From assembly GCA_048941265.1 (NCBI GenBank), contig JBHLNT010000073.1, positions 1-19,141 of the forward strand: a stretch of DNA of 19,141 nt. The letters are read 5' to 3'. The translations under genes and the position numbers were made by a program. The notes under the pieces are model-generated. The model was not told the origin of the DNA and did no database searches. It saw nothing but the letters and a program-made list of their open reading frames with translations. Source of the stretch: Promethearchaeota archaeon (lineage in GTDB: Archaea > Asgardarchaeota > Lokiarchaeia > Sigyniarchaeales > SOKP01). Below are positions 1 through 19,141 of this stretch, one piece after another. The number at the start of each line of letters is the position of its first letter. Position 1 is the first letter of the stretch.

Positions 1-456
1 TATGATATATTATATGGAGAAGTTTATGCCACATCTCCTAATCTTGAAGGAATTGCAGGATGGCTACATTCTGAAAACGCATATACAACAATAGAGAGAC
101 AATTAAAGAGTGGAGGGGCAAAAGTTATTTCTAAACTTGGTATGGAATTTTATAAAAAATCAAAACATATTCAAGAATTTACTGATTTGATTCATAAGAA
201 AAATGCTCCCTTTAAACATTGGTGTTTAGACCAAATTGGAGTTGATCCTAATTTTCAAGGAAAAGGACATGCGGGAGTTTTACTAAAAGCTATGTTTACC
301 AGATTAGATCAAGAAGGGATATCTATTTACCTTGAAACTCATAAAGAAAAAAATGTGGCCATTTACCAACATTATGGGTTTAAAATTCTTGAAAACACTA
401 CGATTCATGACACCGATCTTCGCAAATGGGCCATGTTAAAAGAACCTTCTATTTAA
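1..456 (+). CDS. GNAT-family N-acetyltransferase, 5'-truncated by the window edge
   Basis: Frame +1 is open from base 1 (YDILYGEVYATSPNLEGIAGWL...) into the listed ORF 142..456. Acetyl-CoA-binding motif A IGVDPNFQGKGHA and the downstream YLET..N..Y.HYGF motif are present. Stop TAA at 454-456. Confidence 0.85.
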   Translation, partial: YDILYGEVYATSPNLEGIAGWLHSENAYTTIERQLKSGGAKVISKLGMEFYKKSKHIQEFTDLIHKKNAPFKHWCLDQIGVDPNFQGKGHAGVLLKAMFTRLDQEGISIYLETHKEKNVAIYQHYGFKILENTTIHDTDLRKWAMLKEPSI

Positions 457-582
457 TTATTTACATTTAGCTTTTCATAAGGAGATAGAATTAAAAAAAC
501 AGATTCAACATAATAAAATGATTTTGACGTTAAATGCTCAAAATAATGAGTAAAATAAAAAAAAATTTGGAAAATTTGAAGT

Positions 583-1584
583 TTATAATTTTTTCACAAT
601 AAGTTCTGCCATACGGTTGGAGAAACCCCATTCATTATCGTAGTATGAAAGGATGAATACTTCATCTTCAATTGCTTTTGTCCAAATACTACTAAAGATA
701 GAGCTATGTGCATTTCCGATTATATCACTACTTACAATTGGATCATCACTATATTCTAAAATTCCTTTCAATGAATTATTTGCAGTCGCTTTCATCTTAG
801 CATTAATATCTGCTGCACTACATTTGTTCTCTACAATTGCTTTTAAATCAACTACACTACCGTCTGCTGTAGGAACCCGAATAGCGATTCCATCTAATTT
901 TCCTTTAAGATCTGGATATATCTCTCCAATTGCTTTTGCAGCACCTGTGGATGTTGGTATCATATTTTGGGCTGCGGCTCTACCTCTTATCATTTTTTCA
1001 GGTCCACCTGCTCTAGCAACATCTACATTGGATTGGTCATTTGTATAAGAATGAATAGTTGTCATTAATCCATATTTTATTTTAAAGTTTTCATGTAGGA
1101 CTTTTACAACTGGAGCTAAACAGTTAGTAGTACAAGATGCATTTGAAATTATTTTATGATCACTGGTAATTTTATCGTCATTACAGCCTAACACAACCGT
1201 AATATCGGGATTTGTAGCTGGAGCACTTATTAAAACTCTTTTTGCTCCTGCAGCCAAATGTTTACTCGCTCCTTCTCTGTCTACAAATCTACCTGTGGAC
1301 TCTACAGCAACATCAACGTTATTTGATGCATGTGGTAAATTTGCTGGATCTCTCTCGGCCGTTACGGGAATCTCTTTTCCATCAACAATAAGAGCTTTAT
1401 CTGTAGCACTTACTGTCCCTTCAAATCTTCTGAAAACAGTATCATATTTTAAAGAATAGGCTAAATATTTTGGCTCGAAAAGATCATTGATAGATACTAT
1501 TTCGAGTCCTGGATTTCCCCATGCTGCCCTAAAAAAGAGCCTACCAATTCTCCCAAAGCCATTTATCGCCACTATTTTTGCCAT
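583..1584 (-). CDS. gap: Class I (bacterial/eukaryote-type) glyceraldehyde-3-phosphate dehydrogenase
   Basis: INGFGRIGR Rossmann motif, catalytic SNASCTTNCLAP, PTSTGAAKA, RVPT, YDNEWGFSNR; 333 aa. Confidence 0.97.
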   Translation of the reverse strand: MAKIVAINGFGRIGRLFFRAAWGNPGLEIVSINDLFEPKYLAYSLKYDTVFRRFEGTVSATDKALIVDGKEIPVTAERDPANLPHASNNVDVAVESTGRFVDREGASKHLAAGAKRVLISAPATNPDITVVLGCNDDKITSDHKIISNASCTTNCLAPVVKVLHENFKIKYGLMTTIHSYTNDQSNVDVARAGGPEKMIRGRAAAQNMIPTSTGAAKAIGEIYPDLKGKLDGIAIRVPTADGSVVDLKAIVENKCSAADINAKMKATANNSLKGILEYSDDPIVSSDIIGNAHSSIFSSIWTKAIEDEVFILSYYDNEWGFSNRMAELIVKKL

Positions 1585-1781
1585 TATTCATCAACTATTT
1601 TTCTATTTAATTTTTAATAAATTGGTTCTAATTGTACTAAAAATGATGATTTTATTTGTGTTTGTTAGTTTATTAATTTTTTAGTTTTACTTTTTTTAAG
1701 GAATTAGCCCATTATCTAAAAACCAGCAGAATTCTGCTTTAAAAATAAATAAGAAAAAGTAAAAAATAAGATCTTTAAAAC

Positions 1782-2552
1782 TTAGGTTTCTCCTTCCTCG
1801 AATTCCTTCCCCATAAGTCTTACTACAGCGTCGGCAAGTTTGTTTTGGCTACGGCTCATAATTCCTTTTATTTTACCCTCCTTTCCGGTTACCCTTAGCA
1901 TTATTCCATTCCAGACCGATGAGGGCTCTCCTTTTACTTTTCTGAATCTATCTCTAAAAATTTTTACATCAATTTTATTATAATTTTCAGCCGCAGTAGA
2001 GCATTTAAAACATAGTATGCATAAATCTTTATCGATAATTATCTCCGAACCCTTTCGGGACAAAGCACCTACGGCACATTCATCGCAGAAAGCATCAATT
2101 ACCTTGTTATCTTTTTCACTGGATGTAATTGTAATATTACCCTCTACTACTTTCCGGACCTCTTGCCCATTTTCTAACGTTCTAACTTCTTCCTCAAACT
2201 CTGGAAGCGATCCATTTTCCACTAAGTTTAATTTTTTCTCTCCATTAATGAATAGTTCTAAAGTATAACCAGGGCAGATCCATGTGCAACTGCCACACCA
2301 TATACATTTCTCTAAATCTACAACAATTTTATGGTCTGATTCGATTCCCATCTCTTCAGGAGTCCCAATCGCGGTCTTTTTTAAAGGTTCATCGTAGATG
2401 CTAACGGTAACAGGACAAACTCGGTGGCAAAATCCGCATTCTACGCATTTATCTTCATGATATCGGAGCACCATATCGTGTGATAGCATTTTATATTCGT
2501 AATCTATAGTGTTCTCGTCAACTTGAATTGCTTTTTTAGACGGTAGAGACAT
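1782..2552 (-). CDS. Polyferredoxin-like 4Fe-4S protein (FwdF/MvhB-like)
   Basis: Two complete motifs (CVECGFCHRVCP, CIWCGSCTWICP) and two partial ones (FCDECAVGA, CILCFKCSTAA). Confidence 0.8.
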   Translation of the reverse strand: MSLPSKKAIQVDENTIDYEYKMLSHDMVLRYHEDKCVECGFCHRVCPVTVSIYDEPLKKTAIGTPEEMGIESDHKIVVDLEKCIWCGSCTWICPGYTLELFINGEKKLNLVENGSLPEFEEEVRTLENGQEVRKVVEGNITITSSEKDNKVIDAFCDECAVGALSRKGSEIIIDKDLCILCFKCSTAAENYNKIDVKIFRDRFRKVKGEPSSVWNGIMLRVTGKEGKIKGIMSRSQNKLADAVVRLMGKEFEEGET

Positions 2553-2642
2553 ATTTTTTCACTCTCATTTTTAATTCTTTTAATTAAAATATTACTCTTT
2601 TTTTTTAATATAATTTATAATGTAAAATTTCATGAATCGAAA

Positions 2643-3797
2643 TTAGGTTTTTTCTAATTCCATTTTTGCTATTGCTTTTCCGCTCCTAAATGGAATATCA
2701 TCAACGGAATGTCCGCTTTCATACTTGAACTTTTCTTTAAAAGCATCATTTAACGACTGGAAATATAAAGATAGCGGTAAATTCATTGGACAATTATTGT
2801 CGCAGTTGCCGCATTCAACGCATCGGTCTGCGTCATGGGCGATTCTGGTAAGTTGATATGAAATGTTATCAATAGTTTTTTCTTTTTTCTTATTCATCAG
2901 GATACAATCTACGCAATAACACACTGGACATCCTCGAATGCACATTCCACATGCGGTACATTTTTTGAGTCTTTCTAATTTTTCCTCTTGTGGAACTTTC
3001 GCCCATTCTTCTAAATCTTTAACTCTCTTCTCCCTTGCTTGAGCTATTATATCCTCATATTTTTGGGTATGAGTCTTTTTAATATCATTGGGAAGAGGTT
3101 TTTTACTAATACCCGATTTTTCCAGGACAGTGTTCCCATTTTCGGAATATACTTTTAATATAATTTCATTAGAATCTATAGGAATTCCAAGATCACTTAC
3201 GGATAAATCAGCAATAATGGGCAATTTTCTATAGCATCTAAGACAATTTTCGGCAACGGTGAGATCAAGTTCTTTGCTACTTCCATCATCTAATTTAACG
3301 ATAAGGCCCTTATCTCCGACCTTTTCTTTAATAATTTTTGCTGGATCAATATCTTTTATTTTTTTTATATCTCTTCCTGCCTTAGGAAGTAGTCCTCTGT
3401 CTTCTATAGCAATAATAAAAAGATTATCTAGGTTGATCTGCTTTATTTTAGCAAGCTCAATTAAAGCTCTTGTATCACATGGTCTCGCAATAAGTCCAAC
3501 TTTTTCTTTCATCGCTCCTTGGACTGATTTATGAAGATACTTAGATGCGGAATCCGTTCTGGCATATCCATATGCAATTAAATTTGTTAATGGAAATATC
3601 GCAGTATCCTCTGCTTTTTCCATTAATTTCGGAACTACTGTAAATCTATCCTCTAAATTAGTTTTTTTATCAACTTTTGTTTCAGCACTAATGATTTTAT
3701 CTACAATTTTCTCTTTCAATAGTGTATTCAATAATTCCGGAAAATCTTCAATTTTTATTAGAAACTCTCCTGTTGCGTCCATATGTTTCCAACTCAT
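2643..3797 (-). CDS. FdhB/FrhB-family (F420 dehydrogenase beta subunit-like) protein with a C-terminal 2x[4Fe-4S] domain
   Basis: KVGLIARPCDTRALIELAKIKQINLDNLFIIAI resembles the FdhB core; ENCLRC, ADLSV; C-terminal CTACGMCIRGCPVCYCVDC and CVECGNCDNNCP. Confidence 0.8.
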   Translation of the reverse strand: MSWKHMDATGEFLIKIEDFPELLNTLLKEKIVDKIISAETKVDKKTNLEDRFTVVPKLMEKAEDTAIFPLTNLIAYGYARTDSASKYLHKSVQGAMKEKVGLIARPCDTRALIELAKIKQINLDNLFIIAIEDRGLLPKAGRDIKKIKDIDPAKIIKEKVGDKGLIVKLDDGSSKELDLTVAENCLRCYRKLPIIADLSVSDLGIPIDSNEIILKVYSENGNTVLEKSGISKKPLPNDIKKTHTQKYEDIIAQAREKRVKDLEEWAKVPQEEKLERLKKCTACGMCIRGCPVCYCVDCILMNKKKEKTIDNISYQLTRIAHDADRCVECGNCDNNCPMNLPLSLYFQSLNDAFKEKFKYESGHSVDDIPFRSGKAIAKMELEKT

Positions 3798-3840
3798 ATT
3801 TTCAAGGAAATTTATTTAAATTTTATTTTTGAAAAAATTA

Positions 3841-3857
3841 CTTTATATATATCTTTT
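3841..3857 (-). promoter_or_regulatory. Candidate BRE/TATA box for the fdhB-like gene
   Basis: Minus strand AAAAGATATATATAAAG about 45-60 nt upstream of ATG 3797. The AT-rich background makes this weak. Confidence 0.3.
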
Positions 3858-3891
3858 AATTTAATATTGAATTTTTTTTGAAATTATTTAA

Positions 3892-3966
3892 AATGTGTCA
3901 ATGGTGCTCCCATTCCCTCTGTTAGGTTCTCATTTTTTTTAACCTAACGTCATAAGTGAACACATT
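3892..3966 (-). promoter_or_regulatory. Eukaryote-type SECIS element (selenocysteine insertion sequence) in the 3' UTR of mvhD
   Basis: RNA reads AAUGUGUU-CACUU-AUGAC-GUUAGGUU-AAAAAAAAUGAG-AACCUAAC-AGAG-GG-AAUGG-GAGCA-CCAUU-GACACAUU. Helix I is 3966-3959/3899-3892, AUGA is 3953-3950 facing GA at 3919-3918, helix II is a perfect 8 bp (3948-3941/3928-3921), and the apical loop is A-rich. It begins 6 nt after the mvhD stop. Confidence 0.9.
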
Positions 3967-3972
3967 AAATTC

Positions 3973-4419
3973 TTAAGCTTTCGCTTTTTTTTTAGGTGTG
4001 TTTGTTTCTGGTCGTAAGGGACTTGGTCCTAATTCTCTAATTATTTTGTCGAATGCAATAGCCACATTTTGGAACTTTTGTCCTTCTGCTGCAGTACAAT
4101 AATCCATTTTTAATCTTTTTTCATCCAAGCCAATAATATGTAAAACCTGTTTAAGGTATTCCACTTGGCGGTAAGCAAAGTAATTCCCTGTTTCATAATC
4201 ACATTCTTTTGGATATCATCCAACAATCATTACACCGTCAGCACCCCTTCCAAATGCTCTCATTACGACATCAGGTCCTACTCTACCAGTACAAGGAACT
4301 AATACAGTTCTTAGAGATGAGGGGTATTGGGCACGTATAGTACCCGCCATATCAGCAGAACCATAACCTCATTTCCAACATAAAAATGCTATGATCTTAA
4401 TATCCTCATTTTCCGTCAT
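3973..4419 (-). CDS. mvhD: MvhD/VhuD-family [2Fe-2S] subunit, selenoprotein with two Sec (U17, U68), 148 aa
   Basis: ATG at 4419 with RBS GAGGTGA 5 nt upstream. Translation: MTENEDIKIIAFLCWK*GYGSADMAG...VPCTGRV...GADGVMIVG*YPKECDYETGN...; TGA at 4371-4369 and 4218-4216 occupy the family's CxxC and GC..xC cysteine positions. The frame continues into the listed ORF 3973..4164. Confidence 0.93.
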
Positions 4420-4432
4420 AATCTTCACCTCT

Positions 4433-6400
4433 CTACTCCGGCATTGGTAATAATTCATCCATTAAAGCCATATATTGGTCATCTCTATAGTAAGTAAGTT
4501 CAATTGCCTTGGAGGGACAAAGTGAAGCACATGTTCCGCATCCTCTACATTTTATCAGATCCACTACCAAATTTCCTGTTTCATTTACCGAAATTGCGGT
4601 GTAAGGACATGCTTCAATACATTTATAGCATTTCGCGCATCTTTCATCTGATGGTTTGGCCCGAATTAACTCCATAGTATATTCTCCTTTACTCATGGGG
4701 ATTCCAGCGGTAGACGCAGCCCCTTTCGCTTGACTAACTGCTTTGTCAATTTCTTTTTGTCCCTGAGCAGAACCACAGATATATATTCCAGGAACTTTTG
4801 TACTAATTGGATCGAGTCGAGCATGATATTCTTTAAGAAATCCATCAGGGCTTTTTTCCATATTAAGTACTCTAGCGATTTCTACGGTACCTTGGGATGG
4901 AAGTGATGCTGGTGAAAGAACCACCATCTCGAATTCAGCTGTTATAACTATATCGGTACCTACAGGTTCCATCTGGACGATCAGATTTTTAGTTTCAGGA
5001 ACTTCTTCAATTTTGCCTACTAATCCCTTTACAAAAATTATACCCGCATCCCGAGATCTTCTGTAATATTCTTCGTAATCCTTACCAGCACACCTCATAT
5101 CAATGTAACTACACATAATTTGTGAGTCGGGGTATTCTGATTTGATAAGTTTCGAATTCTTAAGAGATAAATTGCAACAAATAACACTGCACCACGGATT
5201 TTTACTAACATCTCTTGATCCAACACAATTAATAAATAAGATCCTTTTAGGTCTTTCTCTATCAGATGGTCGCTTTAGATGACCGAATGTGGGTCCATTT
5301 GGTGCGATAATTCTTTCCAATTCAATTTGATTGATAACATTTTCATAAGTTCCGTATCCATAATCATCACCATGGTAGAGATCCCATCCTGTAGCAACGA
5401 TGATGGTTCCCACTTCGAGTTCGATAGTGTTATCTTGCTGACTAAAATCTATTGCCTCCTGCTCACATCCATCAACACATGCAAAACATTCTACACAAGA
5501 ATCCCTCACAATATCCCGGACAGCAGGAACTGCTTGTGCGAATGCAATATCAATAACCTTTCTGGCCGAGAGATACTCGTCAAAATAATTCGGAACATAG
5601 ATTGGACATGCTTCTGTACAGGTTCCACATCCGGTGCATTTAGTTTCATCAATAAATCTAGCTTTTCTCTTAATTTTTATCTTAAAATTTCCAATATATC
5701 CATCTACTTTTACAACCTCACTATAAGTTAAAATTTCAATGTTAGGATGACGATTGCTTTCAAGCATCTTTGGACCGAGAATTCATATTGAACAATCATC
5801 TGTAGGAAATGTTCGATCCAATTGGCTCATTCGACCGCCAATTGTAGTATTTTTTTCTACCAGATACACTTTATATCCAGCATCTCCTAAATCAATGGCT
5901 GCGGTTAGTCCAGCAATGCCTCCACCAACAACAAGAGCAGTTGGATTTACTGGAACTGTCATGGTTGGAACATCCTCCAGAAGTTTTGCCCTGGCAATAC
6001 CCGCTCTTATTAGTTCGATAGCCTTTTGTGTCGCTTTTTCGCGTTCCTCAGGAGCTTGATGAACAAATGAACAGTGCTCACGAATATTCACAAATTCTAA
6101 GTATCTAGGTGGTAATCCCATCTCTTTCAAAATAGCGTGAAAAACTGGTAAATGGGTCTTAGGAGTACAAGCTGTTACCAAAATCCTATCAAAAGGATGT
6201 TCTTCATATTGTTCCTTAATATATGATGAACCTCCCTCTGTACATAGAGATAAATAGGGGTAAGCCCAGACATTATCTAATTTATTAATTTCATCAACGA
6301 TCTTAGGGATATCTAAAATTCCAGCAATGTTAATTCCTCAGTGACAAACAAACACACCTATTTTCAATTCTTCATTATCATTGGTCTGATTTTCAGACAA
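4433..6400 (-). CDS. hdrA: Heterodisulfide reductase subunit A (FAD/Fe-S), selenoprotein with two in-frame TGA (U21, U206), 655 aa
   Basis: TTG at 6400 with GGTGA 5 nt upstream (same geometry as mvhD; an in-frame GTG at 6409 is an alternative start). KIGVFVCH*GINIAG (TGA 6340-6338) and FPTDDCSI*ILGPKM (TGA 5785-5783) join the listed ORFs 5783..6181 and 4433..5767 in one frame. GGGIAG FAD motif, CVGSRD..CSVICC and ferredoxin motifs are present. Stop TAG. Confidence 0.95.
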
Positions 6401-6502
6401 ATAATTCACCTTTTAGAATCCTTTCCTCCTTAGTTTTAAATGGTAATTAGTGTTAATTTACCTTTTTTGAAATAATTAAATTAGTTTATATTATAAAAAG
6501 TA

Positions 6503-6540
6503 AAATAGTTGATATTATTAAAGTTAAATCCTTATCAAAA
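6503..6540 (-). promoter_or_regulatory. Conserved 38-bp upstream element, copy 1 (before hdrA)
   Basis: + strand AAATAGTTGATATTATTAAAGTTAAATCCTTATCAAAA, 34/38 identical to 9216..9253, same orientation relative to the gene. Confidence 0.7.
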
Positions 6541-6659
6541 ATCTCTTTTTTAGATATTATACAATTATGTGAAAAGAAATTTAATTTGTTGTAAGAATCT
6601 ACTTTAGTAAAAATTTAAACTATAACAAATGAAAATAAAAAGAAAAAATAAAATTATAA

Positions 6660-7196
6660 TTATTTTAAATCAGCAAGTTGTTCAGCAAACAAGCGTTTAA
6701 CAGCTTCAATTCTAGTCTCTTCGCCTATTTGTTCCACGTTCTTCAACGCTATCGCTTCTTTAGGGCATACAGTAATGCATTGTGGTTCTTTCTTTCCGAC
6801 TTCGGGATCTATGAATTCTTCTCGCATACTTTCACAAAGGTCGCATACAAGAGCCTTCTGGGTATCCATATGAAGCGTTATTACTCCAAAATCGCAAGCT
6901 CGAACACAAAATCCACAACCATTGCATTTGTCCTCATCTACTATAATTGATCCATCCTCGTTTTTATCCAATGCCTTCTCTGGGCAGGCGCGAATACATG
7001 GAGCATCTTCACATTTCTGGCAAGCAAGAGCGATATTTAAAATGGGTTCTATTCTAACCCTGTGAATACGGGTCTTAATCGGATTGAATTCGCCATCGTG
7101 AACAAATGAACATACACTCTCACAAGTCTCGCAGCCAGTACATTTGTCCGCATCAACAACGATAAACTGATGGATCCTCTTTTTCTTAGCAGACAT
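6660..7196 (-). CDS. 4Fe-4S dicluster electron-transfer subunit of the AOR-family enzyme (DmsB/HydN-like)
   Basis: CTGCETCESVC, CQKCEDAPCIRACP, CNGCGFCVRAC, CDLC..PQCITVCP. Its ATG directly abuts the aor TAA (TAAATG), suggesting translational coupling. Confidence 0.9.
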   Translation of the reverse strand: MSAKKKRIHQFIVVDADKCTGCETCESVCSFVHDGEFNPIKTRIHRVRIEPILNIALACQKCEDAPCIRACPEKALDKNEDGSIIVDEDKCNGCGFCVRACDFGVITLHMDTQKALVCDLCESMREEFIDPEVGKKEPQCITVCPKEAIALKNVEQIGEETRIEAVKRLFAEQLADLK

Positions 7197-9134
7197 TTAC
7201 TTCTTCTTCCCTCCTGCAGTTTTTAATTTTCCAATCACAAAATCTAATCCTAATTCTTTTAGAGTTTCATCAGTGGGTATACCTGATTCTTTGTCCCAAC
7301 CTCTTGCTTCATAATATCCACTTAATACTTTTTGATATCCTTTTTCATCCAGTGTTACTCCTTTGGCGGGACCAGTTGTATGTGCTTCCTTAAAAAATCT
7401 TTCAGGGGGATGATCATCCGCTCTCGTCCAACCTTCCCTAATATTAAAGCATTTTGAAAGGGTAACAATAGCATCTCCTCTTTTAAGTATATATTCCTCT
7501 GTTACAGGAATTCCTGTCACAAGTTCATAGACTTTAGCCATCTCCGCATCATTTTCATAAATCCCGCGTGTAAATTTACAGATAATATATGAGTCAATTA
7601 TCGCATACACGTCTTCTAACCCTTTAATCCCCTTCCCTCTTTCAAGTGGTTTATCATATGTAAATCTATCATAGGTTCCTTTAGCATCTATACCATAAGA
7701 TCCATTTCTTAGATGGCATGCTCCTCGGATTGACACACTTTCCCCTACAGCGAATGTACTCATACCATGAAGATCGAATGCTGGCATTTCTAAACCTTTA
7801 ATGTGCATACCATAGTATCCTGCATCTTTTCTTCCCATTTCTTCTAATCGTTGACCTGCTACTTTGGTTCCATCACCAAAAATCTCTCCTGCAAAACCCT
7901 TTCCTAAGCACATCTCCTCCGTAAATCTGGCAAGATTTACCGTAGAACCAAATGGCAATTCATAACCTAAGTCATCCTTAGTAATCAAGCCTACATCATA
8001 TAATTCACAAGCCATCGCTGCGGTGACTCCACCAGAAATAGCATCTATCCCTAAATTATCACATAATTGAATGCATTTAAAGACTGTAGGCCAATCTGAA
8101 TTTCCACAAGCTGATCCAAATGAATAACACATTTCTACATCAACACTCGAGAAAAGATTAGGCCAATTAGGATGAGTTTTAGGTACGCGAGCAATATGGT
8201 CACAAGCAATTGAACACTGGGAGCATGCGACTTTTTTCACAACCCAATTTTCGTTAAGAGAATCTCCTGTGAATGATCCATCAGTTATTTTCTCCCAAGT
8301 GCCCTCACGATGATTATAAGTAGGCATCATGCCCAATTTATTATAGCTGGTTAAGCCCGAAGGAGTTCCTAAATCACGATACTTAGCTGTAGCGGGCCCA
8401 TTAGCTACTTTAATTAATTTCTTAGCTAATTTCCAGAACTCAACGGGATTAGCAACTTTTACTCCTTTAGTGCCTCTGAAGCATACAGCTTTAAGATTTT
8501 TTGAACCCATGACTGCCCCCATTCCAGTTCTCCCTGCTTGTCTATTCCGATCATTAGTAATACAACCCATATGACTCATTCGTTCACCAGCAGGACCAAT
8601 TGACATAACGGCTAATCTGTGATCCTGAAATTCTTCTCTTAAGATTTCTTCTGTTTCCCAACAACCTTTTCCCCAGACTGTTTTTTCACAAGGCTCTAAA
8701 TAATAATTATCATCGTCTACAACCATATAGACAGGTTCAGGAGCTTTACCCTTAAATACAATCATGTTTATTCCTGCCCTACGAGCTTGAGCGGCTACAG
8801 ACCCTGATGAAATTGCCATTCCAAACATTCCAGTTAATGGAGATTTTGCAAAAACACCATATTTTGAGCTGGTTGGTAAAATAGTGGTAGGAAAAGGTCC
8901 ATGAGCATAAACAAACACATTATCAGGACTTAACGGGTCAGCTCCGGGTTTAATTTCATCCCATAATACTTTAGCACCAAAACCATATCCGCCTATCCAA
9001 TCTCTACAAAACTGCCTTGATAGATTTGATTTTTCAATTTTTCCATTTGTTAAATCTACGTCTAATCTAACTTGAGTATATCCTAAAACCTTATCCGGCA
9101 TTGATATTTCCTTAGACTTACTCATGTTTTTCAC
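7197..9134 (-). CDS. aor: Aldehyde:ferredoxin oxidoreductase family protein (tungstopterin, 4Fe-4S)
   Basis: KSPLTG, SIGPAGE, AGRTGMGAVMGSKNLKA, CSQCSIAC, CDNLGID, RGACHL, YYEARGWD..GIP. The start could be ATG 9125 instead of GTG 9134. Confidence 0.92.
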   Translation of the reverse strand: MKNMSKSKEISMPDKVLGYTQVRLDVDLTNGKIEKSNLSRQFCRDWIGGYGFGAKVLWDEIKPGADPLSPDNVFVYAHGPFPTTILPTSSKYGVFAKSPLTGMFGMAISSGSVAAQARRAGINMIVFKGKAPEPVYMVVDDDNYYLEPCEKTVWGKGCWETEEILREEFQDHRLAVMSIGPAGERMSHMGCITNDRNRQAGRTGMGAVMGSKNLKAVCFRGTKGVKVANPVEFWKLAKKLIKVANGPATAKYRDLGTPSGLTSYNKLGMMPTYNHREGTWEKITDGSFTGDSLNENWVVKKVACSQCSIACDHIARVPKTHPNWPNLFSSVDVEMCYSFGSACGNSDWPTVFKCIQLCDNLGIDAISGGVTAAMACELYDVGLITKDDLGYELPFGSTVNLARFTEEMCLGKGFAGEIFGDGTKVAGQRLEEMGRKDAGYYGMHIKGLEMPAFDLHGMSTFAVGESVSIRGACHLRNGSYGIDAKGTYDRFTYDKPLERGKGIKGLEDVYAIIDSYIICKFTRGIYENDAEMAKVYELVTGIPVTEEYILKRGDAIVTLSKCFNIREGWTRADDHPPERFFKEAHTTGPAKGVTLDEKGYQKVLSGYYEARGWDKESGIPTDETLKELGLDFVIGKLKTAGGKKK

Positions 9135-9215
9135 ATCGAAAAGTCTTATTTATTTTTTGTATATTTTTTAATTAAATTTCTATTTATATCTTTACTTCTT
9201 AGATCTTAGATAGTT

Positions 9216-9253
9216 AAATAGTTGATATTTTAAAAGTTAAATCGTTATTAAAA
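9216..9253 (-). promoter_or_regulatory. Conserved 38-bp upstream element, copy 2 (before aor)
   Basis: + strand AAATAGTTGATATTTTAAAAGTTAAATCGTTATTAAAA, 34/38 identical to 6503..6540. Confidence 0.7.
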
Positions 9254-9401
9254 TTTCGATATTCTATTTTAACAAAATGAGTCTTTAGAATTTACGCAAA
9301 GCTTATTAGAAATTTAAAGACAAAAAAATTACCAATCCCTTCTTCAGTTCTGAAAAAAATGATTAATGAAATCAATATTTAGGATTAAAATAATAGAAAG
9401 T

Positions 9402-10259
9402 TTATTTTTTTGGAACCCCATGTGGGCATACTTTGAGACACACAGAGCAATAATTATTATACAACAGACTATTAATGCATTTGGAACGATCTATGTGGGT
9501 AATAATTCCTCCTTCTTTTTGAATGGGTGTTTCAAAAGCAGCTCCACCTTTACAATTTTTTACACAGGCTCCACATGTTTTGCAAAATTCCTTCATTTCG
9601 TTAAAATCCCTTTTAATTGTTTCTGGTATCTCAGCATCAGTAGATATGATTGCCCATCTTTGACGAGGTCCAAATTCAGGAGTAATTATGAGCCCATTTC
9701 GTCCCATTATACCTAAATTGGCTGCTACAGCATGGGCAGTAAATAATAACTTTCCCCCAAAAGGATGATGCGCTTCAGCTTTATATCCTTGTTCTTTTAA
9801 ATGATTTGTCAATTCAATTGTTTTGTCGCCCAATTCCTTATATACTCTAAAAGCTTCAACACCACAAAATACGCTCGGAGCAGTTCTTATATTATCCCAA
9901 ATCATTTCCATTCCAAGCACTATTGCATTTTTCCCGTATATTTTAAGGTTCTTAAATATGTAATTTTCATCAACTGGAGTATAACCTATAAGATTAATGC
10001 CCATTTCCTTGGCTTTTCTCTCAAAATCTTCCCAAAATTCAGGAGTGGTTTCTGTTTTAGTATTTTTTTCATTACCTTCTTTAGTCTTATTCGCAATTTG
10101 AAAGCCTTTGAAAGTCCCTCTTATATACTTACTAAACTCTTTGGCAACTTGCGGATCTATTTTACTCTCAGATTTCATGCTGAATAATTCTTTCGGAACA
10201 ATGAATACTAAATTATCATTATTCCCAATGTAGGTGGGTTTTATTTCTTCTTCAGTCAA
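9402..10259 (-). CDS. Reductive dehalogenase / epoxyqueuosine reductase (QueG)-like cobalamin and 2x[4Fe-4S] protein
   Basis: AVAANLGIMGRNGLIITPEFGPRQR resembles the RdhA/QueG motif; FCKTCGACVKNC and CINS...CSVCLKVCP. No TAT signal seen. Confidence 0.8.
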   Translation of the reverse strand: MTEEEIKPTYIGNNDNLVFIVPKELFSMKSESKIDPQVAKEFSKYIRGTFKGFQIANKTKEGNEKNTKTETTPEFWEDFERKAKEMGINLIGYTPVDENYIFKNLKIYGKNAIVLGMEMIWDNIRTAPSVFCGVEAFRVYKELGDKTIELTNHLKEQGYKAEAHHPFGGKLLFTAHAVAANLGIMGRNGLIITPEFGPRQRWAIISTDAEIPETIKRDFNEMKEFCKTCGACVKNCKGGAAFETPIQKEGGIITHIDRSKCINSLLYNNYCSVCLKVCPHGVPKK

Positions 10260-10479
10260 AATTATCTCCCTTTATAATGGCTTAGATTAATTTATTATAT
10301 TTATTAAGTACATTACTAAGAAAATTTAAATCTTTTTCTTATTATAGAATCGATTTGGCATTATATTTTAAATTATGATTCGAGTGAAAATTAAAAATAT
10401 ATATTAGTTCTGGTGATAATTATAATTAGTTTATTTCAAACTTGAATAACTAAGTAAAATAAACATGAGGATATAAAAA

Positions 10480-11877
10480 ATGGCACAAGAAGGTCTCGCT
10501 CAAACTGAAGTAAAAAGGTATCCTAAGATGATAATAACATCTTTTCAATTTGGAAATCTTGTAGGATTAATGATGAGCCAGATGTATTCCCAGCAGCTTA
10601 CTTTTTTCTATCTAGGAGTGGTAGGTATGGATATAACATTCTATCTAATTGCTATGATAATTTATATGGTTTTTAACATGTTCAATGATCCACTCCTTGG
10701 ATATTTTTGTGATAAGTCCACTCGCTTTATAGAAAGATGGGGTAAACGATTTCCTTTCATCGTTATGGCAATCCCTTGGTGCTTTATAGTTATTTTCTTA
10801 TACATGCCCCCTTCAGTTGATGAAATTGGTCAATTTGGTATATTTTTGTGGTTTTTAATATTTATGTGTATTTATGACACGGTCTTTTCTTTGTTTGACA
10901 TTAACCGAACTGGGCTGTTTCCTGACAAATTTAGAGATAATCAAGATCGAAAATGGGGAGGTATGATTACTACTATACTCGAAACCATTGGAATTTTACT
11001 TGGAGTTTTAATACCAGTGCTTACTATTGAATTTTACGGACAAGATCTTGGATGGAGGATTCAAGCAATTATAATTTCATTAGTCGCTTTTGTATTCTTG
11101 ATTTTGATGATACCTGGAGTACGAGAAGATCAAGAAATGAGACAACGACGTTCTCGTGTCGATAAAATTTTAACGGAACCTTTTTTCAAGGGTTTAAAAT
11201 CAGCTTTAAAAGATAAACATTTTGTCGGATATATGATTTTATTTGTGGTGTATACTTCTACTATGGGTCTTGTGATGGCTTCAATACCGTTTCTTGTGCA
11301 AGACATTCTACAGTTATCAAAAATCGGTGAATTAGTTGTGCTTTTTTACATCTTTGCTGCCATTATAGGAGCACCGTTTTGGTATAAAGTTTCCTTTAAA
11401 TTAGGTATAAAGCGGGTGACGTTAATAGGGGCAATACTTTTGGCTTGTATGGGAATACCATTTCTTTTTATACCCGTTGGTCCTGAAGGTTTAATTTTCG
11501 TTATAATAATTTTTACAATTGCGGGTTTTGTCGATGCCGCAATAATTACTATGACAATGCCTCTTTTTTCCTCTGTGATTGACAATGCTACTATAGAAAC
11601 TGGTAAACGAAGAGAAGGGCTATATAAAGGAGTATGGTTGTTTTTTTCAAGAATAGGTCTTGCTATTCGTGCCATAGTTTTTTGGATTGTTCAAATAACT
11701 TTTGGATATCATTCAGGCTCCACTGATCCATATGAATTAATGGGTCTTAGATTTCAACTTTCAGTTTTTCCTATGATTATCTGTGGAGTTGGTATTTTCG
11801 TTTTCTGGAGACTTTATCAAATCACGCCAGAGCAATTAGAACTTAATATAGAAAAACTTAAAGAACTAAAGCTATAA
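10480..11877 (+). CDS. MFS transporter, GPH (MelB-like glycoside-pentoside-hexuronide:cation symporter) family
   Basis: About 12 hydrophobic segments; NDPLLGYFCDKS..RWGKRFPF and D...ETGKRREGLY motifs; GAGG RBS upstream. Confidence 0.9.
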   Translation: MAQEGLAQTEVKRYPKMIITSFQFGNLVGLMMSQMYSQQLTFFYLGVVGMDITFYLIAMIIYMVFNMFNDPLLGYFCDKSTRFIERWGKRFPFIVMAIPWCFIVIFLYMPPSVDEIGQFGIFLWFLIFMCIYDTVFSLFDINRTGLFPDKFRDNQDRKWGGMITTILETIGILLGVLIPVLTIEFYGQDLGWRIQAIIISLVAFVFLILMIPGVREDQEMRQRRSRVDKILTEPFFKGLKSALKDKHFVGYMILFVVYTSTMGLVMASIPFLVQDILQLSKIGELVVLFYIFAAIIGAPFWYKVSFKLGIKRVTLIGAILLACMGIPFLFIPVGPEGLIFVIIIFTIAGFVDAAIITMTMPLFSSVIDNATIETGKRREGLYKGVWLFFSRIGLAIRAIVFWIVQITFGYHSGSTDPYELMGLRFQLSVFPMIICGVGIFVFWRLYQITPEQLELNIEKLKELKL

Positions 11878-12014
11878 TATTATAAAAAACTAAGTTAAAT
11901 TACTTAACATCTTTTTTTTATTCTCTTTTCTTTTGAAATCATGAAAAAACTTTTATTTTCTAATCATAAAAGTTAAACTTTCAATTGAATTTTTAAAAAA
12001 TAAAAAAGTCGCAT

Positions 12015-15000
12015 TTGGTTGTAAAAATTAACGAAAATAATTACAATTGTCCTTTCTGTGGAAATAATTTAGAATCAAGATATTCTAAATGTTTTAATAT
12101 TTATTGCCAAGGGCAAAAATTCAATGAGGGTAATTTAATTATCTATCGATTGAATCCTAATTTTGAAATAGGACGTATAATAAAGAGACTAGAGATACCT
12201 GCTTCAAAATCATTAGATAATGAAGATACGTATCTTATAACTAAATATAAAGTCCTTTTTAAAAATACTATAATAAAAACGATCCATCCCATTGACCTTA
12301 TTCATTATATCTTCGACGTTAATGAACAAATATTAACTAAAAAAGGAGTGGGTGTAGTAAATACTCAAGATTTCTTAACAAAAGACGGAAAAATCTCATA
12401 TGAAATCTTATTTCCAAATGGGAAATTAGAACAAATAAATGAAACTGAAATTATATCGAAATATGAACCAAGTGCAAAGAGAATAATCTCGAAACATAAA
12501 ACCGATCCTCCTAAAAATTTTTTGATTAAATACTGGGCAAATTTATTCTATTCCTATTATACATCCTACCAAATCAAGTGTATAACAAACTCCAGATTAG
12601 CTCTAATGCCGCATCAAATAAATGTTGCTCATCGATTGTCAGAAGAATATTTCCCAAGAGTAATTTTAGCAGATGAAGTTGGGCTTGGAAAAACAATTGA
12701 GGCGGGGATATATATAAAAGAGATGATGGCAAGGAATTTAGCCGAACGAATACTTATTATAGTACCTGCTACGCTGATTAGACAATGGCAATTTGAACTT
12801 GAAAACAAATTTAATATTAAATTTACGATATATGATGGAAAAAAAATAAAAGAACTAAAAAGAGGAGGACATGGACTTTTGGAATTATTGCAAAATCCAT
12901 TTTATTATGATAACTTAATTATTTGTTCACTTCAATTTGCCAGAAATCCAAAATATATCGAATTATTATCACAAATTTCATGGGATATTATTATTTTTGA
13001 TGAAGCTCACCATCTTAGGAGATATTTAACTAATGCAGCAACAGGAAGCTATCGCGAAACATTAAATTTCAAATTAGCAAGAAAATTAAGTCAAAGTACA
13101 GAATCACTGCTACTTTTAACAGCTACTCCCCTTCAACTTCATTCTTTTGAATTATTTTCATTGATTGATTTAATTCACCCTGAAGCTTTTGATAATTTCA
13201 GCGATTTTGAGCATTTTAGAAAAAATATGCCATTCATTAACTTATTGATATCCAATATAAACGATATTGATAAATTAAATATGTTTGAAATTAAAAATAC
13301 AATCAAACTCCTTAGAGACCTAAAGTACGTAAATAAAAAAGAAGCTAATGAACAAATTCTTGAAAAAATAAAAAATCTTAATTTTAAAACAAAATTACTC
13401 GAAAAAATTGAAGCCGATCATACAATCTCTAAATTTCTAATTCGGAATCGGAAAAAAAATGTATTTTCTAAAGAATTTTTAAATAAAAGGATCGTTAAAA
13501 CGATAATGGTGTATCCGACTAAGCAGGAATTAGAAGTTTATATAGAAATTCGGAATTATTTGGCTAAGGTTTATAATGCTTCAATAAGCGAAGGAAATAT
13601 AGGGATTGGTTTCGTCATAACAACACTCCAAAAGTTATTAACAAGCTCAAAATATGCTATTTTAAAAAGTATTGAACGTCGATTAGAACATATCAATCGT
13701 TTGAAAGATATTTCAATTGAATTAGAATTTATAAAAGAAGATGATCCGGAGTATTATGAAGCTGTATATGAAGAACAGTATATTGATGCAGAAAATGATG
13801 AAATTTTTAATGATCTATTAAGGCAGGATAAAAATAAGCGAGTATTAGATCTAATTAATCAAGAAAAGATTTTAAAAGAATTTTATGTAAAATTAAAGAA
13901 TGTACCATATGATTCTAAATCGGATAAATTCATAGAGCTTCTGTCTCAAGTATATGGTCAAAATTCTCATGAAAAAGTGATTGTTTTTACTCAGTTTGTA
14001 GATACTCTATTTCATTTAAAAGATCTCTTAGAGAATCAAAACAATAATTATGTTATTGAAGTTTTTTATGGTGGAATGAATAAAATAGAAAAAGATGAAG
14101 CAGTAGAGAGATTTCGCACAAATTCAAAATTTTCTATTCTAATCTCGACGGAAATTGGCGGTGAAGGCAGAAACTTCCAATTCTGTAGAATTTTAGTAAA
14201 TTATGATTTGCCTTGGAATCCAATGAAATTAGAACAGAGAATTGGGAGACTTGATAGAATTGGACAAGAATCTCAGGAAATATATATCTATAATTTCTTT
14301 ATGGAAGGTACTATTGAAACTGATATTCTATTTGCATTAGATAAAAGAATAAATTTATTTGAGGAATCAATTGGACTGTTGGAACCAATATTGGGAAAAA
14401 TCGAAAAGGATTTTAAAGAATTGATCTTTTCACAGGAAACACAAAAGCGAAAAAAACTAAATGAATTTAATAGAACGCTTGATGAAGAAATTCAGAAAGC
14501 GAAAGAAATTGAAATGCAATTAGACGATTTATTAATTGATAAAAAATCGTTTCAGATGGATGGATTAATTACATCTTTAGCATCATGTGAAGAAGTCAAA
14601 CTAAGCCATAGTGAATTATTTCTTCTGATCACATATTTTTTTAATTTAGAGCATCATATATATGGGCATTTAGAAATCTTAGACCATGAGGAAAATGAAG
14701 ACAGAGGCAAATTGCCTCTAGTGAAAATTATATTATACGATACTCTACTTTCAAATCCATATTATCAATTTTCAAAAGCATATGTCGGAACATTTAACTT
14801 AGAATTGGCAAGAGAAAGGGAGGAAATAGAATTTTTTGCATTAGGTCATCCCCTAATTGACTACTTATTGGAATATTGTAGAGCCTATTCATTAAGGGGT
14901 ACAATTACAGTTTTAAATCTGAAAAGAAAGGAGTTATTAGATGCAATTAGTCCCAATACCATTCAATATCAGGAATTATATCTATTCCTATTTGAAATAA

Positions 15001-15617
15001 AGTTTCAAGGGTATATTATTGAAACTCAGATTTCTGCTGTAGTTATTGATGATAAGGGAAATCATTTGGAAGATATTGCAGAATATTTATTAAATATTGA
15101 AAACTTTGGGAAAATTTTTAATTTTGACCAAAAAATCCCTCATAATATTAATATAAATCAAAATTTTATAGATAAATTAAGAGAAAATGCTAAATCATTA
15201 GCAAAGAGGAAAACTTCCCTATGGAAAGAAGAAATTAGAAAACTTAACGATAAGGTTTTCAATTTAGAGCAAGATAAAAAAAATAAAATTTATTCTTATA
15301 AAAAAAATGTACTAAATCTTAAACTCAATTCTTTAAAACAGAAGTTAGAAAGAAAATTAAACCAAAGACCAAGTGAAAAACAGAAAAAAAATATCGAAAA
15401 TGAAAAAGATAAAACTAAAAAGAGTGCAAAGTTGAGTAACATAAAGAAGTTGGAAGAAGAAATAAAATTTTTAGACGAAGATATCATTGGAATTAAAAAG
15501 AAGTTAGATGATCTTTCATTTGAATATGATGATTTAAAAAATGAAATGAAAAAAAGAAACATAGCTAAATTCTACACTAATATTTTAGGATTTGCAATTA
15601 TTCGATTTAATAATTAA
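12015..15617 (+). CDS. RapA/HepA-like SNF2-family ATPase with N-terminal Zn-ribbon and C-terminal coiled coil
   Basis: LMPHQ..PRVILADEVGLGKTIEAG, DEAHH, LLLLTATP, STEIGGEGRNFQ, NYDLPWNPMKLEQRIGRLDRIGQ; N-terminal CPFC..C..IYC; K/E-rich C-terminus. Confidence 0.9.
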   Translation: MVVKINENNYNCPFCGNNLESRYSKCFNIYCQGQKFNEGNLIIYRLNPNFEIGRIIKRLEIPASKSLDNEDTYLITKYKVLFKNTIIKTIHPIDLIHYIFDVNEQILTKKGVGVVNTQDFLTKDGKISYEILFPNGKLEQINETEIISKYEPSAKRIISKHKTDPPKNFLIKYWANLFYSYYTSYQIKCITNSRLALMPHQINVAHRLSEEYFPRVILADEVGLGKTIEAGIYIKEMMARNLAERILIIVPATLIRQWQFELENKFNIKFTIYDGKKIKELKRGGHGLLELLQNPFYYDNLIICSLQFARNPKYIELLSQISWDIIIFDEAHHLRRYLTNAATGSYRETLNFKLARKLSQSTESLLLLTATPLQLHSFELFSLIDLIHPEAFDNFSDFEHFRKNMPFINLLISNINDIDKLNMFEIKNTIKLLRDLKYVNKKEANEQILEKIKNLNFKTKLLEKIEADHTISKFLIRNRKKNVFSKEFLNKRIVKTIMVYPTKQELEVYIEIRNYLAKVYNASISEGNIGIGFVITTLQKLLTSSKYAILKSIERRLEHINRLKDISIELEFIKEDDPEYYEAVYEEQYIDAENDEIFNDLLRQDKNKRVLDLINQEKILKEFYVKLKNVPYDSKSDKFIELLSQVYGQNSHEKVIVFTQFVDTLFHLKDLLENQNNNYVIEVFYGGMNKIEKDEAVERFRTNSKFSILISTEIGGEGRNFQFCRILVNYDLPWNPMKLEQRIGRLDRIGQESQEIYIYNFFMEGTIETDILFALDKRINLFEESIGLLEPILGKIEKDFKELIFSQETQKRKKLNEFNRTLDEEIQKAKEIEMQLDDLLIDKKSFQMDGLITSLASCEEVKLSHSELFLLITYFFNLEHHIYGHLEILDHEENEDRGKLPLVKIILYDTLLSNPYYQFSKAYVGTFNLELAREREEIEFFALGHPLIDYLLEYCRAYSLRGTITVLNLKRKELLDAISPNTIQYQELYLFLFEIKFQGYIIETQISAVVIDDKGNHLEDIAEYLLNIENFGKIFNFDQKIPHNININQNFIDKLRENAKSLAKRKTSLWKEEIRKLNDKVFNLEQDKKNKIYSYKKNVLNLKLNSLKQKLERKLNQRPSEKQKKNIENEKDKTKKSAKLSNIKKLEEEIKFLDEDIIGIKKKLDDLSFEYDDLKNEMKKRNIAKFYTNILGFAIIRFNN

Positions 15618-15650
15618 GATTTAGAAAAAAATTAAATTAATTTAAGATCT

Positions 15651-18014: not shown

Positions 18015-18194
18015 TTTTAATCTAACTATTGTAATTAAAATCTTAATATGTTTAATCTATTGAATAAGTATATTTAAACGTTATCTTAATTATTCAGCAG
18101 AATTTTAACTACACTTACTTAAAGCCCCTCTTTTTATTAGATCTAATTCTTATATCGTTTTCAGTTAAATTTTCATTAATAAGTATGATTTTCA

Positions 18195-19007
18195 TCATTC
18201 TTTTATTAGGCTGTACTTCAGTCCATATTGTTTAAAGATCTTTGTCCCTCCTCCTTCTTGTAAGACTTTTATTGTAGAGTCACTGTCTAAGATTTTCATT
18301 CCCGAAACAATGTCAACTCCCTGGTCAAACAATATGTCTGGGAACATACTTGCTGTTGGTCCTATAACTATGATTTGTTGGGCTTTTCTCTTGAACTTTT
18401 CTAATACTTCCTCCATTGTATTGTTAATTAATGCTGTTCCTGTGCAAAACAAGACGTTTGTTGCTAATTCTTCTTCTTTTAACTGATTTATATCAGAGGC
18501 AATTTTAAATCTTTTAAATGATGCAAGTTCTGAAATGCTGTTATCTACAATGATTATGGAGTCAGAAATTTTGCCTATCTTTCGAATTAAGGGTTTAATC
18601 TCACCGATAAAAATGATTTTCGAATTTTTATTAATCTCAAGAAGATCCATCAAATCTTCTTCAAGTTTTCGGTAAGGATTGATTATTTCGAGAATATGTT
18701 GAGACATTGCATTTAAAGTTGCAATACCAATTATTTTTTGTAAACTTGGAGGTCTACAGGTTCAATCTAATAGTTCAGATAGAGGTCTATTCGTAAGGTT
18801 TCCTGCTAAATTAAGCTTTGTAAAGATATTACTCTTAATTTCACTATGTAATGTATAGGCCAACCCCAAAAAAGGGCTATATGAGAGAGCATAAAGTTCC
18901 ACTCCTGTATAACCTAAACCTAATACCACTCTATTGACTTTTGGAGGGATTATTTTATGATATTTGTATATACTTCTCACAAGTTCAACTGTTTTTTCTA
19001 ATATCAT
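18195..19007 (-). pseudogene. DUF364/DUF4213 Rossmann-like (putative metal-chelation) protein interrupted by one in-frame TGA at codon 82; 270 aa if read through
   Basis: The listed ORFs 18762..19007 and 18195..18707 share a frame: ...LSELLD*TCRPPSLQKIIGIATLNAMSQH... Family-like motifs TGTALINNT and IGPTASMFPDILF..GV..VSG are present. Confidence 0.7.
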
Positions 19008-19141
19008 AGTAAAGTTTATTGAATTTTCTTTCTGCTATGATAATGAAATATTTTCTTATTAAGAATAAATCGTATTATACTTTTTTTAAAGTATTTCTAT
19101 AATTAAAAAGATAAATATTAAAATTAAACATGAATCCATAT

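Follow-up and report, generated by a model that had tools for sequence, protein, structure and literature searches.

A single downstream SECIS element as the probable shared signal for four UGA codons in the hdrA-mvhD gene pair of an Asgard archaeon

Several archaeal lineages carry hdrA and vhuD genes in which in-frame UGA codons specify selenocysteine (Sec, U) under the control of a Sec insertion sequence (SECIS) element. The tandem HdrA-VhuD genes of Lokiarchaeota were reported by Mariotti et al. in 2016 to share one such element, the lokiSECIS (PMC4989117), and in 2024 Huang, Xiao and Zhang described one SECIS common to hdrA-vhuD across Asgard archaea at large (PMC11227280). We analyzed a 19,141-nucleotide (nt) contig stretch of a Promethearchaeota archaeon (contig JBHLNT010000073.1, positions 1 to 19,141; hereafter the window), in which hdrA is followed by mvhD (vhuD) and then by a SECIS-like hairpin. 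An earlier note, made from the letters alone, had proposed that this one element recodes four UGA codons in two cistrons. What it had observed at the locus was confirmed in full. A SECIS shared by both cistrons is indeed the best reading of the locus, favored by every computational test that we ran, and we estimate a probability of roughly 0.8 that this is a standard Asgard (Promethearchaeota/Lokiarchaeia-type) hdrA-mvhD pair served by one lokiSECIS. The novelty that the note had implied did not stand, since a shared hdrA-vhuD SECIS in Asgard archaea was already known from the two papers named above.

The locus was very similar to the pairs of Mariotti et al. (PMC4989117). In both cases hdrA precedes vhuD on one strand with a very short spacer, HdrA has multiple Sec sites, including one near residue 200, and VhuD has two. 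Just past vhuD lies one AUGA...GA stem-loop, whose loop is rich in A and has AG at its end; hdrA ends in UAA or UAG, tools of the Rfam type come up empty, and a tRNA-Sec lies near EFSec. Nothing essential differed in the text compared. We counted four UGAs, compared with up to six there. Their 9-bp stem and 11-nt loop correspond here to 8 bp (9 if a C.A mismatch is counted) and 12 nt, and the closing helix and 3' hairpin described below are absent from their main text (supplements were outside the comparison). The element also has the features of the type I eSECIS-like class of Huang et al., who describe hdrA-frhD clusters as well: the core GA_[G/A]A, 7-15 bp in the upper stem with no more than two mismatches, and 8-20 nt in the loop (PMC11227280).

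More distant systems had less in common with the window. The SECIS elements of Methanococcales and Methanopyrus are likewise distal 3' elements that serve upstream UGAs at variable distance in the same selenoprotein families; they carry a GAA_A kink-turn-like bulge and lie in 3' untranslated regions (UTRs), and VhuD there has two Sec codons and one SECIS. However, their core motif and shape differ from those found here, and hdrA has its own SECIS in those organisms, according to the discussion of Mariotti et al. (PMC4989117). In a comparison made by eye alone, the methanogen-type GAA_A asymmetric bulge was not seen in the element of the window. Eukaryotic SECIS elements (Rfam RF00031; selenoprotein P mRNAs) share with it the AUGA/GA quartet, unpaired A's in the loop, a kilobase reach, and several UGAs per mRNA. 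In contrast to these, helix II is shorter here, no Rfam model match was obtained at an E value of up to 10, and the mRNA presumably carries more than one cistron, so that translation would end and begin again between UGAs and element. The element is eukaryote-like in its core motif, yet it is not a member of RF00031 by the model test. A bacterial SECIS is a hairpin immediately 3' of the UGA that is bound by SelB; it has its purpose alone in common with the element studied here, which lies 0.27-2.4 kb from the UGAs, with no constraint seen past those of hdrA. Among recoding systems, a lone 3' signal for the UGAs of two cistrons, acting past a stop codon and a new start, would still be unique and would link prokaryotic operons with the eukaryote-style distal SECIS. 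The window offers one more clean example, with independent support from a model search, a synonymous-site test and a tandem-gene control.

The two genes, their four in-frame TGA codons and the spacer between them are located as follows:

4433..6400, minus strand: hdrA, 655 codons from TTG at 6400 to TAG at 4435..4433, with Sec codons 21 and 206
6338..6340, minus strand: UGA-21 of hdrA, motif VCH-U-GINIAG, with the AUGA of the SECIS 2387 nt downstream
5783..5785, minus strand: UGA-206 of hdrA, the canonical HdrA Sec site, DDCSI-U-ILGP, with the SECIS 1832 nt downstream
4420..4432, minus strand: hdrA-mvhD spacer, 13 nt, AGAGGTGAAGATT, with a GGTGA Shine-Dalgarno sequence 5 nt before the mvhD ATG at 4419
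3973..4419, minus strand: mvhD (vhuD), 148 codons plus TAA (3975..3973), with Sec codons 17 and 68
4371..4369, minus strand: UGA-17 of mvhD, with the SECIS 418 nt downstream
4218..4216, minus strand: UGA-68 of mvhD, 51 codons from U17, with the SECIS 265 nt downstream

Reading TGA as U left 6409..4433 and 4458..3973 open, with two TGA codons in each frame. Under translation table 11 both genes fell into pieces, as the earlier note had said of standard gene callers. Profile searches established the identity of both products. HdrA matched the NCBIfam model HdrA2 (NF040770) over residues 16-653 with 742.8 bits (E 4e-223), which is under the cut-off of 1100 bits of a model that also spans a fused MvhD part, and 4Fe-4S (Fer4) and flavin adenine dinucleotide-binding Pfam domains were found in the same product. 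MvhD matched Pfam FlpD (PF02662; 145.3 bits, E 1.2e-42, cut-off 22.3) and NCBIfam VhuD (NF045873; 138.7 bits, E 1.2e-40, under the cut-off of 215). The TTG at 6400, which had also been the proposed start of hdrA, is likely the true one, because its Shine-Dalgarno sequence is conserved and has the same geometry as that of mvhD. Indeed, AAAAGGTGAAnnAnTTG at the hdrA start was kept in orthologues, with a GGTGA Shine-Dalgarno sequence and a 5-nt spacer, and mvhD is preceded by GGTGA-AGATT-ATG. Moreover, hdrA orthologues with an ATG begin at the same residue (M-S-E-...) as the window's TTG start. The mvhD ATG lies out of the hdrA frame, 16 nt from the first base of the hdrA stop; a read-through fusion of the two genes was ruled out on account of this difference in frame.

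The window proteins were then compared in alignments that included 24-25 orthologues of other genomes plus paralogues encoded in the same genome. All four TGA codons, which had been placed at Cys-motif positions by the earlier note, aligned with Cys of the Cys-type paralogues. The first-site column of HdrA held 26 U, 4 C and 1 gap and the second 27 U, 3 C and 1 misaligned E (31 rows each); for MvhD, the two columns held 28 U and 6 C, and 27 U and 7 C, respectively (34 rows each). The Cys rows were HdrA-MvhD fusions of the Cys type and free MvhD copies of the same genome; in Cys-type paralogues, the counterpart of U206, the canonical site near residue 200, reads DCSI-C-ILGP. A third HdrA site was Cys in the window and U in 6 of the 31 rows. 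Across 61 related genomes, including Promethearchaeota, Promethearchaeia, Hodarchaeota and Hermodarchaeota, an MvhD match was present in 60, and among the 29 best MvhD orthologues outside the genome itself, 28 kept two TGA codons and one had a single TGA. Elsewhere in this genome TGA is an ordinary stop, ending 267 of the 1955 stop-to-stop frames longer than 300 amino acids (aa). The 11 other open reading frames (ORFs) of the window that were checked held no in-frame TGA, and two of them ended in TGA. Since TGA is otherwise a stop and none of these ORFs is interrupted by it, chance as the source of the four codons is excluded. In four DNA contig sets from two studies, the four TGAs were unchanged among the matches listed, which lends no independent support: the sets are fragmentary, many of their contigs come from relatives, and the contigs with 0 differences, which cover 5783-5785, come from one study that is possibly the source. 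Beside the split Sec-type pairs, Cys-type HdrA-MvhD fusions of about 800-1170 aa are encoded in the same genome (C241, C20, C355, C157; L011, L014, L010, L017).

The only strong SECIS candidate of the locus follows mvhD and has these parts:

3892..3966, minus strand: SECIS element, 75 nt, with the AUGA at 3953, 19 nt past the mvhD stop
3966..3959 and 3899..3892, minus strand: helix I, 5' and 3' strands, AAUGUGUU pairing with GACACAUU
3953..3950 and 3919..3918, minus strand: core AUGA and GA, with one nt (C and A, respectively) between each and helix II
3948..3941 paired with 3928..3921, minus strand: helix II, 8 bp with 0 mismatches, plus a C.A mismatch
3940..3929, minus strand: apical loop, 12 nt, A-rich, AAAAAAAAUGAG
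3914..3900, minus strand: hairpin III, AAUGG-GAGCA-CCAUU, between the GA and the 3' strand of helix I

The core reads AUGA-C-GUUAGGUU-AAAAAAAAUGAG-AACCUAAC-A-GA; the first five nt of the loop are A-rich, and its last nt is a G with an A before it. The strict SECIS pattern was present downstream of mvhD in 25 of the 28 orthologous loci fetched, and the other three had variants recognized by eye (an outer mismatch, UUGA for AUGA, a longer loop). Loops of 11 nt, one shorter than in the window, were seen in 20 of the 25 strict-pattern relatives. Helix II showed compensatory changes at 7 of its 8 pairs in an alignment of 24 sequences. At a genome GC content of 30.5%, a simple AUGA-stem-GA pattern was too noisy (831 matches genome-wide, 129 with an AA-loop), and covariance models were used in its place. 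Model R1, built from 33 SECIS elements with the window's own left out, matched 3961..3906 on the minus strand with 50.3 bits (E 1e-9) and found no other strong element, in agreement with the claim of a sole SECIS 3' of mvhD. The same genome carries at least nine strong SECIS elements and four Sec-type hdrA-mvhD pairs (C350, C301, C251, C138), each pair with one SECIS, after mvhD. At one of these pairs (C251:9418-9472, minus strand; L015), the SECIS core has UA for GA on its 3' side, and MvhD has one Sec only, its second site being Cys. The fold of the whole 193-nt intergenic stretch was not significant (z = -1.26). RF00031 (SECIS_1) had no match at E up to 10 over 3600-6800, and matches of mir-515 and bxd_5 in the same range of E were dismissed as chance. 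According to Mariotti et al., standard SECIS tools all miss the lokiSECIS (PMC4989117).

If the element serves mvhD alone, hdrA should depend on another signal, and none was detected. Over hdrA and its leader, the best R1 match reached 11.5 bits (E 0.78; 6383..6352, at the start region), and none was significant. The next-best match in the window, with filters off, had 18.6 bits and lay at 15755-15807 on the plus strand, antisense to an unrelated gene. Across 26 orthologous loci (leader, hdrA, mvhD and flank; 93,488 nt; filters off), R1 gave one strong match each and otherwise 15.8 bits or less; the strong matches were training sequences, and the result is the absence of others. A motif match, ATGAA...AGA, that recurred in hdrA of four relatives codes for M-x-x-E-K-x-x-D-G-F-L-K-E, does not occur in the window, and was rejected as chance. 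Third-position entropy over the 20 codons past the two hdrA UGAs was 0.75 and 0.83, compared with a gene mean of 0.75 (standard deviation, 0.06). Synonymous sites past these UGAs are unconstrained, with no sign of a bacterial-type hairpin or redefinition element. In the leader alignment, the conserved blocks were promoter-like or belonged to the Shine-Dalgarno sequence, and no others were seen. The hdrA stop codon was TAA in 20 and TAG in 4 of 24 relatives and TGA in none, and it is TAG in the window. The absence of TGA from this position is in line with the published argument that such a stop would be recoded. The lack of an own SECIS is specific to hdrA, because three tandem small selenoprotein genes of the same genome (C159) each keep theirs, 5-7 nt past the stop.

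In the mechanism that we propose, a promoter in the AT-rich leader would drive the joint transcription of hdrA and mvhD on one mRNA, which may extend into the next gene. The 75-nt element, an 8-bp helix that has an A-rich loop and, at its base, the kink-turn-like AUGA/GA core, would bring EFSec-GTP-Sec-tRNASec, directly or via a binding protein, to ribosomes paused at an upstream UGA. Its reach would be 2387 and 1832 nt for the hdrA UGAs and 418 and 265 nt for those of mvhD. The hdrA UAG would not be recoded, and mvhD would be initiated anew at its own Shine-Dalgarno sequence, so that action on hdrA would extend across the hdrA stop. It had been pointed out as a puzzle that U21 is reached before the SECIS exists. 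This does apply here, but it is not special to the locus; to our knowledge, it holds for every archaeal selenoprotein mRNA with a 3' SECIS. For comparison, a 3' SECIS was functional at 520-679 nt in a Methanococcus maripaludis reporter (PMC9622424), and SBP2 is not known in archaea (PMC4989117).

Most of the Sec machinery was present in the genome, as the earlier note had suggested checking. SelD (185.4 bits, above the cut-off; itself a selenoprotein, with 1 TGA) and EFSec (246.2 bits, above the SelB cut-off) were found. Beside EFSec, 4.2 kb away and on the opposite strand, a search revealed the 5' three-quarters of a tRNA-Sec (L088:15080-15153, plus strand, equal to C284:25579-25652), with a UCA anticodon and a CUUCAAA anticodon loop; the contig end cuts its T loop. 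A scan that asked for a UCA loop and an acceptor stem of 9 bp was uninformative, with 165 matches and much noise. In Lokiarchaeota, the tRNA-Sec has been reported near EFSec, with a 31-nt intron at the position where the T loop is cut here (PMC4989117).

Several observations weigh against the shared element, or against Sec insertion as such. The tRNA-Sec match is partial, with 24.3 bits against a gathering score of 47 (E 0.5). RF01852 gave nothing above its cut-off over the whole genome (its top matches were tRNA-Arg and intron-bearing His and Ser tRNAs), and ARAGORN listed 27 tRNAs genome-wide and no SeC. SepSecS was represented by a C-terminal part at a contig start (196.5 bits, under the cut-off), and PSTK was not found with TIGR03574 and PF08433 in this 91% complete assembly. 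The best matches of these two models were P-loop kinases of 183 and 191 aa that look unlike PSTK and may resemble adenylylsulfate kinase. Rfam detected no SECIS of any kind, either at gathering score or at E up to 10. R1 sees Asgard-type elements only, so that a different hdrA signal would escape it, and the lowest synonymous variation of hdrA, an entropy of 0.57 (about 3 standard deviations under the mean), falls between the start codon and UGA-21. Finally, a lokiarchaeal SECIS was not functional in M. maripaludis, and lokiarchaeal elements have been identified only bioinformatically (Peiter et al., 2025, PMC11881835).

In one rival reading, the TGAs do not encode Sec at all and stem from assembly errors, from disruption of a gene, or from a code in which TGA is reassigned throughout the genome. 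Both genes are indeed cut short by standard gene callers, and TGA is read as W in some public translations of related small genes. This explanation is highly improbable in view of the conservation of the same four codons as TGA in 26-28 aligned homologues of other genomes, the downstream reading frame kept at 57-90% identity, the ordinary use of TGA as a stop in 267 long genomic frames and two window ORFs, the 11 window ORFs without an in-frame TGA, and the presence of both a SECIS and Sec machinery. The low entropy near UGA-21 and the blindness of R1 to elements of other types bear on another possibility, namely, that hdrA has an unrecognized signal of its own, in the coding sequence beside its UGAs or in the 5' leader, and that the SECIS past mvhD serves mvhD only. 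An archaeal SECIS in a 5' UTR has been documented once, in Methanocaldococcus jannaschii (cited in PMC4989117). However, the six informative codons just before UGA-21 had a mean entropy of 0.80, and for this reason we place the constraint on the first five codons of hdrA. Constrained synonymous sites are common beside translation starts, and the low variation in these five codons probably reflects initiation. Together with the average entropy past both UGAs, the leader with its promoter-like and Shine-Dalgarno blocks, the lack of Rfam matches up to E 10, and an RNAz scan by Mariotti et al. of coding sequences with 200 nt on either side, which found just the post-VhuD element (PMC4989117), this makes a separate hdrA signal improbable. 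As an observation on the window itself, codons 1-5 of hdrA (6386-6400, minus strand; TCT GAA AAT CAG ACn) are kept at the nucleotide level.

A slightly stronger competitor, though still an unlikely one, accepts the element and relaxes its action in cis: mvhD would be transcribed separately, starting at a promoter within the final part of hdrA, and ribosomes on hdrA would be served in trans by SECIS-bound factors. A single transcript for hdrA and mvhD is itself our inference, and the nine or more strong SECIS elements of the genome could maintain a pool of loaded factors. On the other hand, the spacer has 13 nt here and is also short in the paralogous pairs, and one pair overlaps by 28 nt according to Mariotti et al. 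(PMC4989117). The avoidance of TGA as the hdrA stop suggests that the signal reaches UGAs throughout hdrA, an argument also made in that paper, and the three tandem genes at C159, which keep their own SECIS, argue against free action in trans. One element acting in cis on both cistrons therefore remains the reading that we prefer, with co-transcription, Sec insertion and long-range action across the hdrA stop as its presumed parts.

Two further features flank the pair and its element:

6401..6659, minus strand: hdrA leader and presumed promoter, AT-rich, without a SECIS-like element
2643..3797, minus strand: gene for a frhB-like Fe-S protein (PF04432, E 4e-9), the next gene after the SECIS

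The frhB-like gene followed downstream on the SECIS strand in 25 of the 28 orthologous loci. The earlier description of the locus as eukaryote-style recoding from a 3' UTR was right in that the SECIS lies after mvhD, and it may need correction in that the element may be intercistronic within a longer conserved hdrA-mvhD-frhB-like cluster, instead of lying in a terminal 3' UTR, because this gene follows on the same strand in most loci. Elsewhere in the window (12015-15617, plus strand) lies a gene for a 1200-aa SNF2-family helicase, with DISARM helicase DrmD as its top NCBIfam match (352.9 bits, cut-off 610).

Two by-products of the analysis, a fuller structural model of the SECIS and a candidate selenoprotein family, may be more useful than the main finding. 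As to the first, we tentatively propose that the Asgard SECIS is a three-way junction, in which helix I closes the element, helix II is kink-turn-like, and hairpin III is nested 3' of the GA. The elements compared were that of the window (3892-3966, minus strand) and those of L009, L012, L015, L047-L074, L075, L076 and L089. For the 85-nt stretch 3968..3884, the minimum free energy structure equaled the centroid and contained all three helices (z = -3.15; 2 of 200 shuffles folded as well). Folding without constraints gave the same layout for most elements of other gene families, which have very different sequences. Helix I, for example, read UUCCGAC/GUCGGAA, CCGA/UCGG, AUCCAG/UUGGAU or UUCCUUA/UAAGGAA in other families; the sequences of helices I and III differed wholly between gene families, and complementarity was kept at the same places. 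By a simple criterion, 47 of 59 elements had the layout, compared with 28% when flanks were shuffled, a contrast that is not a probability, the elements being related. Huang et al. described a lower stem and considered eaSECIS-like hairpins downstream of the element, found in 3.4% of genes, rare and non-functional (PMC11227280); in contrast, nesting of a hairpin 3' of the GA and inside the lower stem was the rule here, in the same 47 of 59 elements.

Covariation was consistent with this layout. In a second mvhD group (23 elements aligned with MAFFT), pairs of hairpin III covaried, one of them being AU in 9, UA in 5, CG in 4 and UG in 4. From this group we built two models: R2, which covers the three helices, and R3, which is limited to helix II. 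Among the 10 elements of the window's group, R2 detected 9, with 20.9-33.3 bits, and R3 detected 1, with 18.3 bits. The three elements at C159 gained 11-19 bits under R2 compared to R3, and the largest loss for any element was 3.7 bits. In a model-fitted alignment, which leans towards structure, 9 of 9 pairs of helices I and III had changed on both sides, and the paired fraction was 95.5% for helix I and 87-89% for the parts of hairpin III, compared with 35-44% overall when partners were slid. The three-helix model may be new: we found no paper that brings together SECIS, Asgard and a three-way junction in its main text, and supplements may already show it. The term lokiSECIS was found in the text of Mariotti et al. 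alone (PMC4989117). Hairpin III could be the docking site of an archaeal SECIS-binding factor, or it could contribute to the ability of a single element to serve all genes of an operon. The failure in M. maripaludis could be explained in part if the construct used there was without helix I and hairpin III.

The candidate family comes from the C159 locus, where two paralogous genes for proteins of about 150 aa (L075:1778-2299 and L075:2374-2862, both minus strand), each with its own SECIS, have adjacent Sec codons (...GC-U-U-E... and ...AD-U-U-A...). This Sec-Sec (C-U-U) family was found in 48 of the 61 related genomes, with 2 or 3 TGA codons in 59 of the 63 listed matches. It had no Pfam match, and a Cys form was not seen among public copies, which are annotated as hypothetical protein and are either cut at TGA or read as WW. 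Such a family would be invisible to searches that rely on Cys homologues. A structural model predicted a beta-grasp fold (predicted local distance difference test score, 79.1; predicted template modeling score, 0.80), and its best structural match was SAMP1 (3po0; E 7.5e-4; template modeling scores, 0.40/0.63), followed by Urm1 and MoaD. SAMP1 is a ubiquitin-like sulfur carrier, and in our own reading of the predicted model, the U-U pair would sit about where SAMP1/Urm1/MoaD carriers end in Gly-Gly. The third gene at this locus (L075:1414-1638, minus strand) has its own SECIS and encodes a Cys-rich, zinc-ribbon-like protein of 72 aa with 4 Sec codons. It was found in 12 of the 61 related genomes, always with 4-5 TGA codons, and its neighbor is the C-U-U gene in this genome as well as in two others. 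A 2026 review (PMC13188914) names 11 archaeal selenoprotein families and Huang et al. (PMC11227280) name seven Asgard ones; both proteins are missing from these lists, the supplementary tables of the two papers lying outside the comparison, and the Sec-Sec family may thus be new. A further gene of the same genome (L089:1706-2026, plus strand) encodes a predicted membrane-anchored protein of about 100 aa with a G-U-G-C motif and no Pfam family above cut-off. It is followed by a strong SECIS at L089:2032-2086 (41.4 bits), which was not in the training set.

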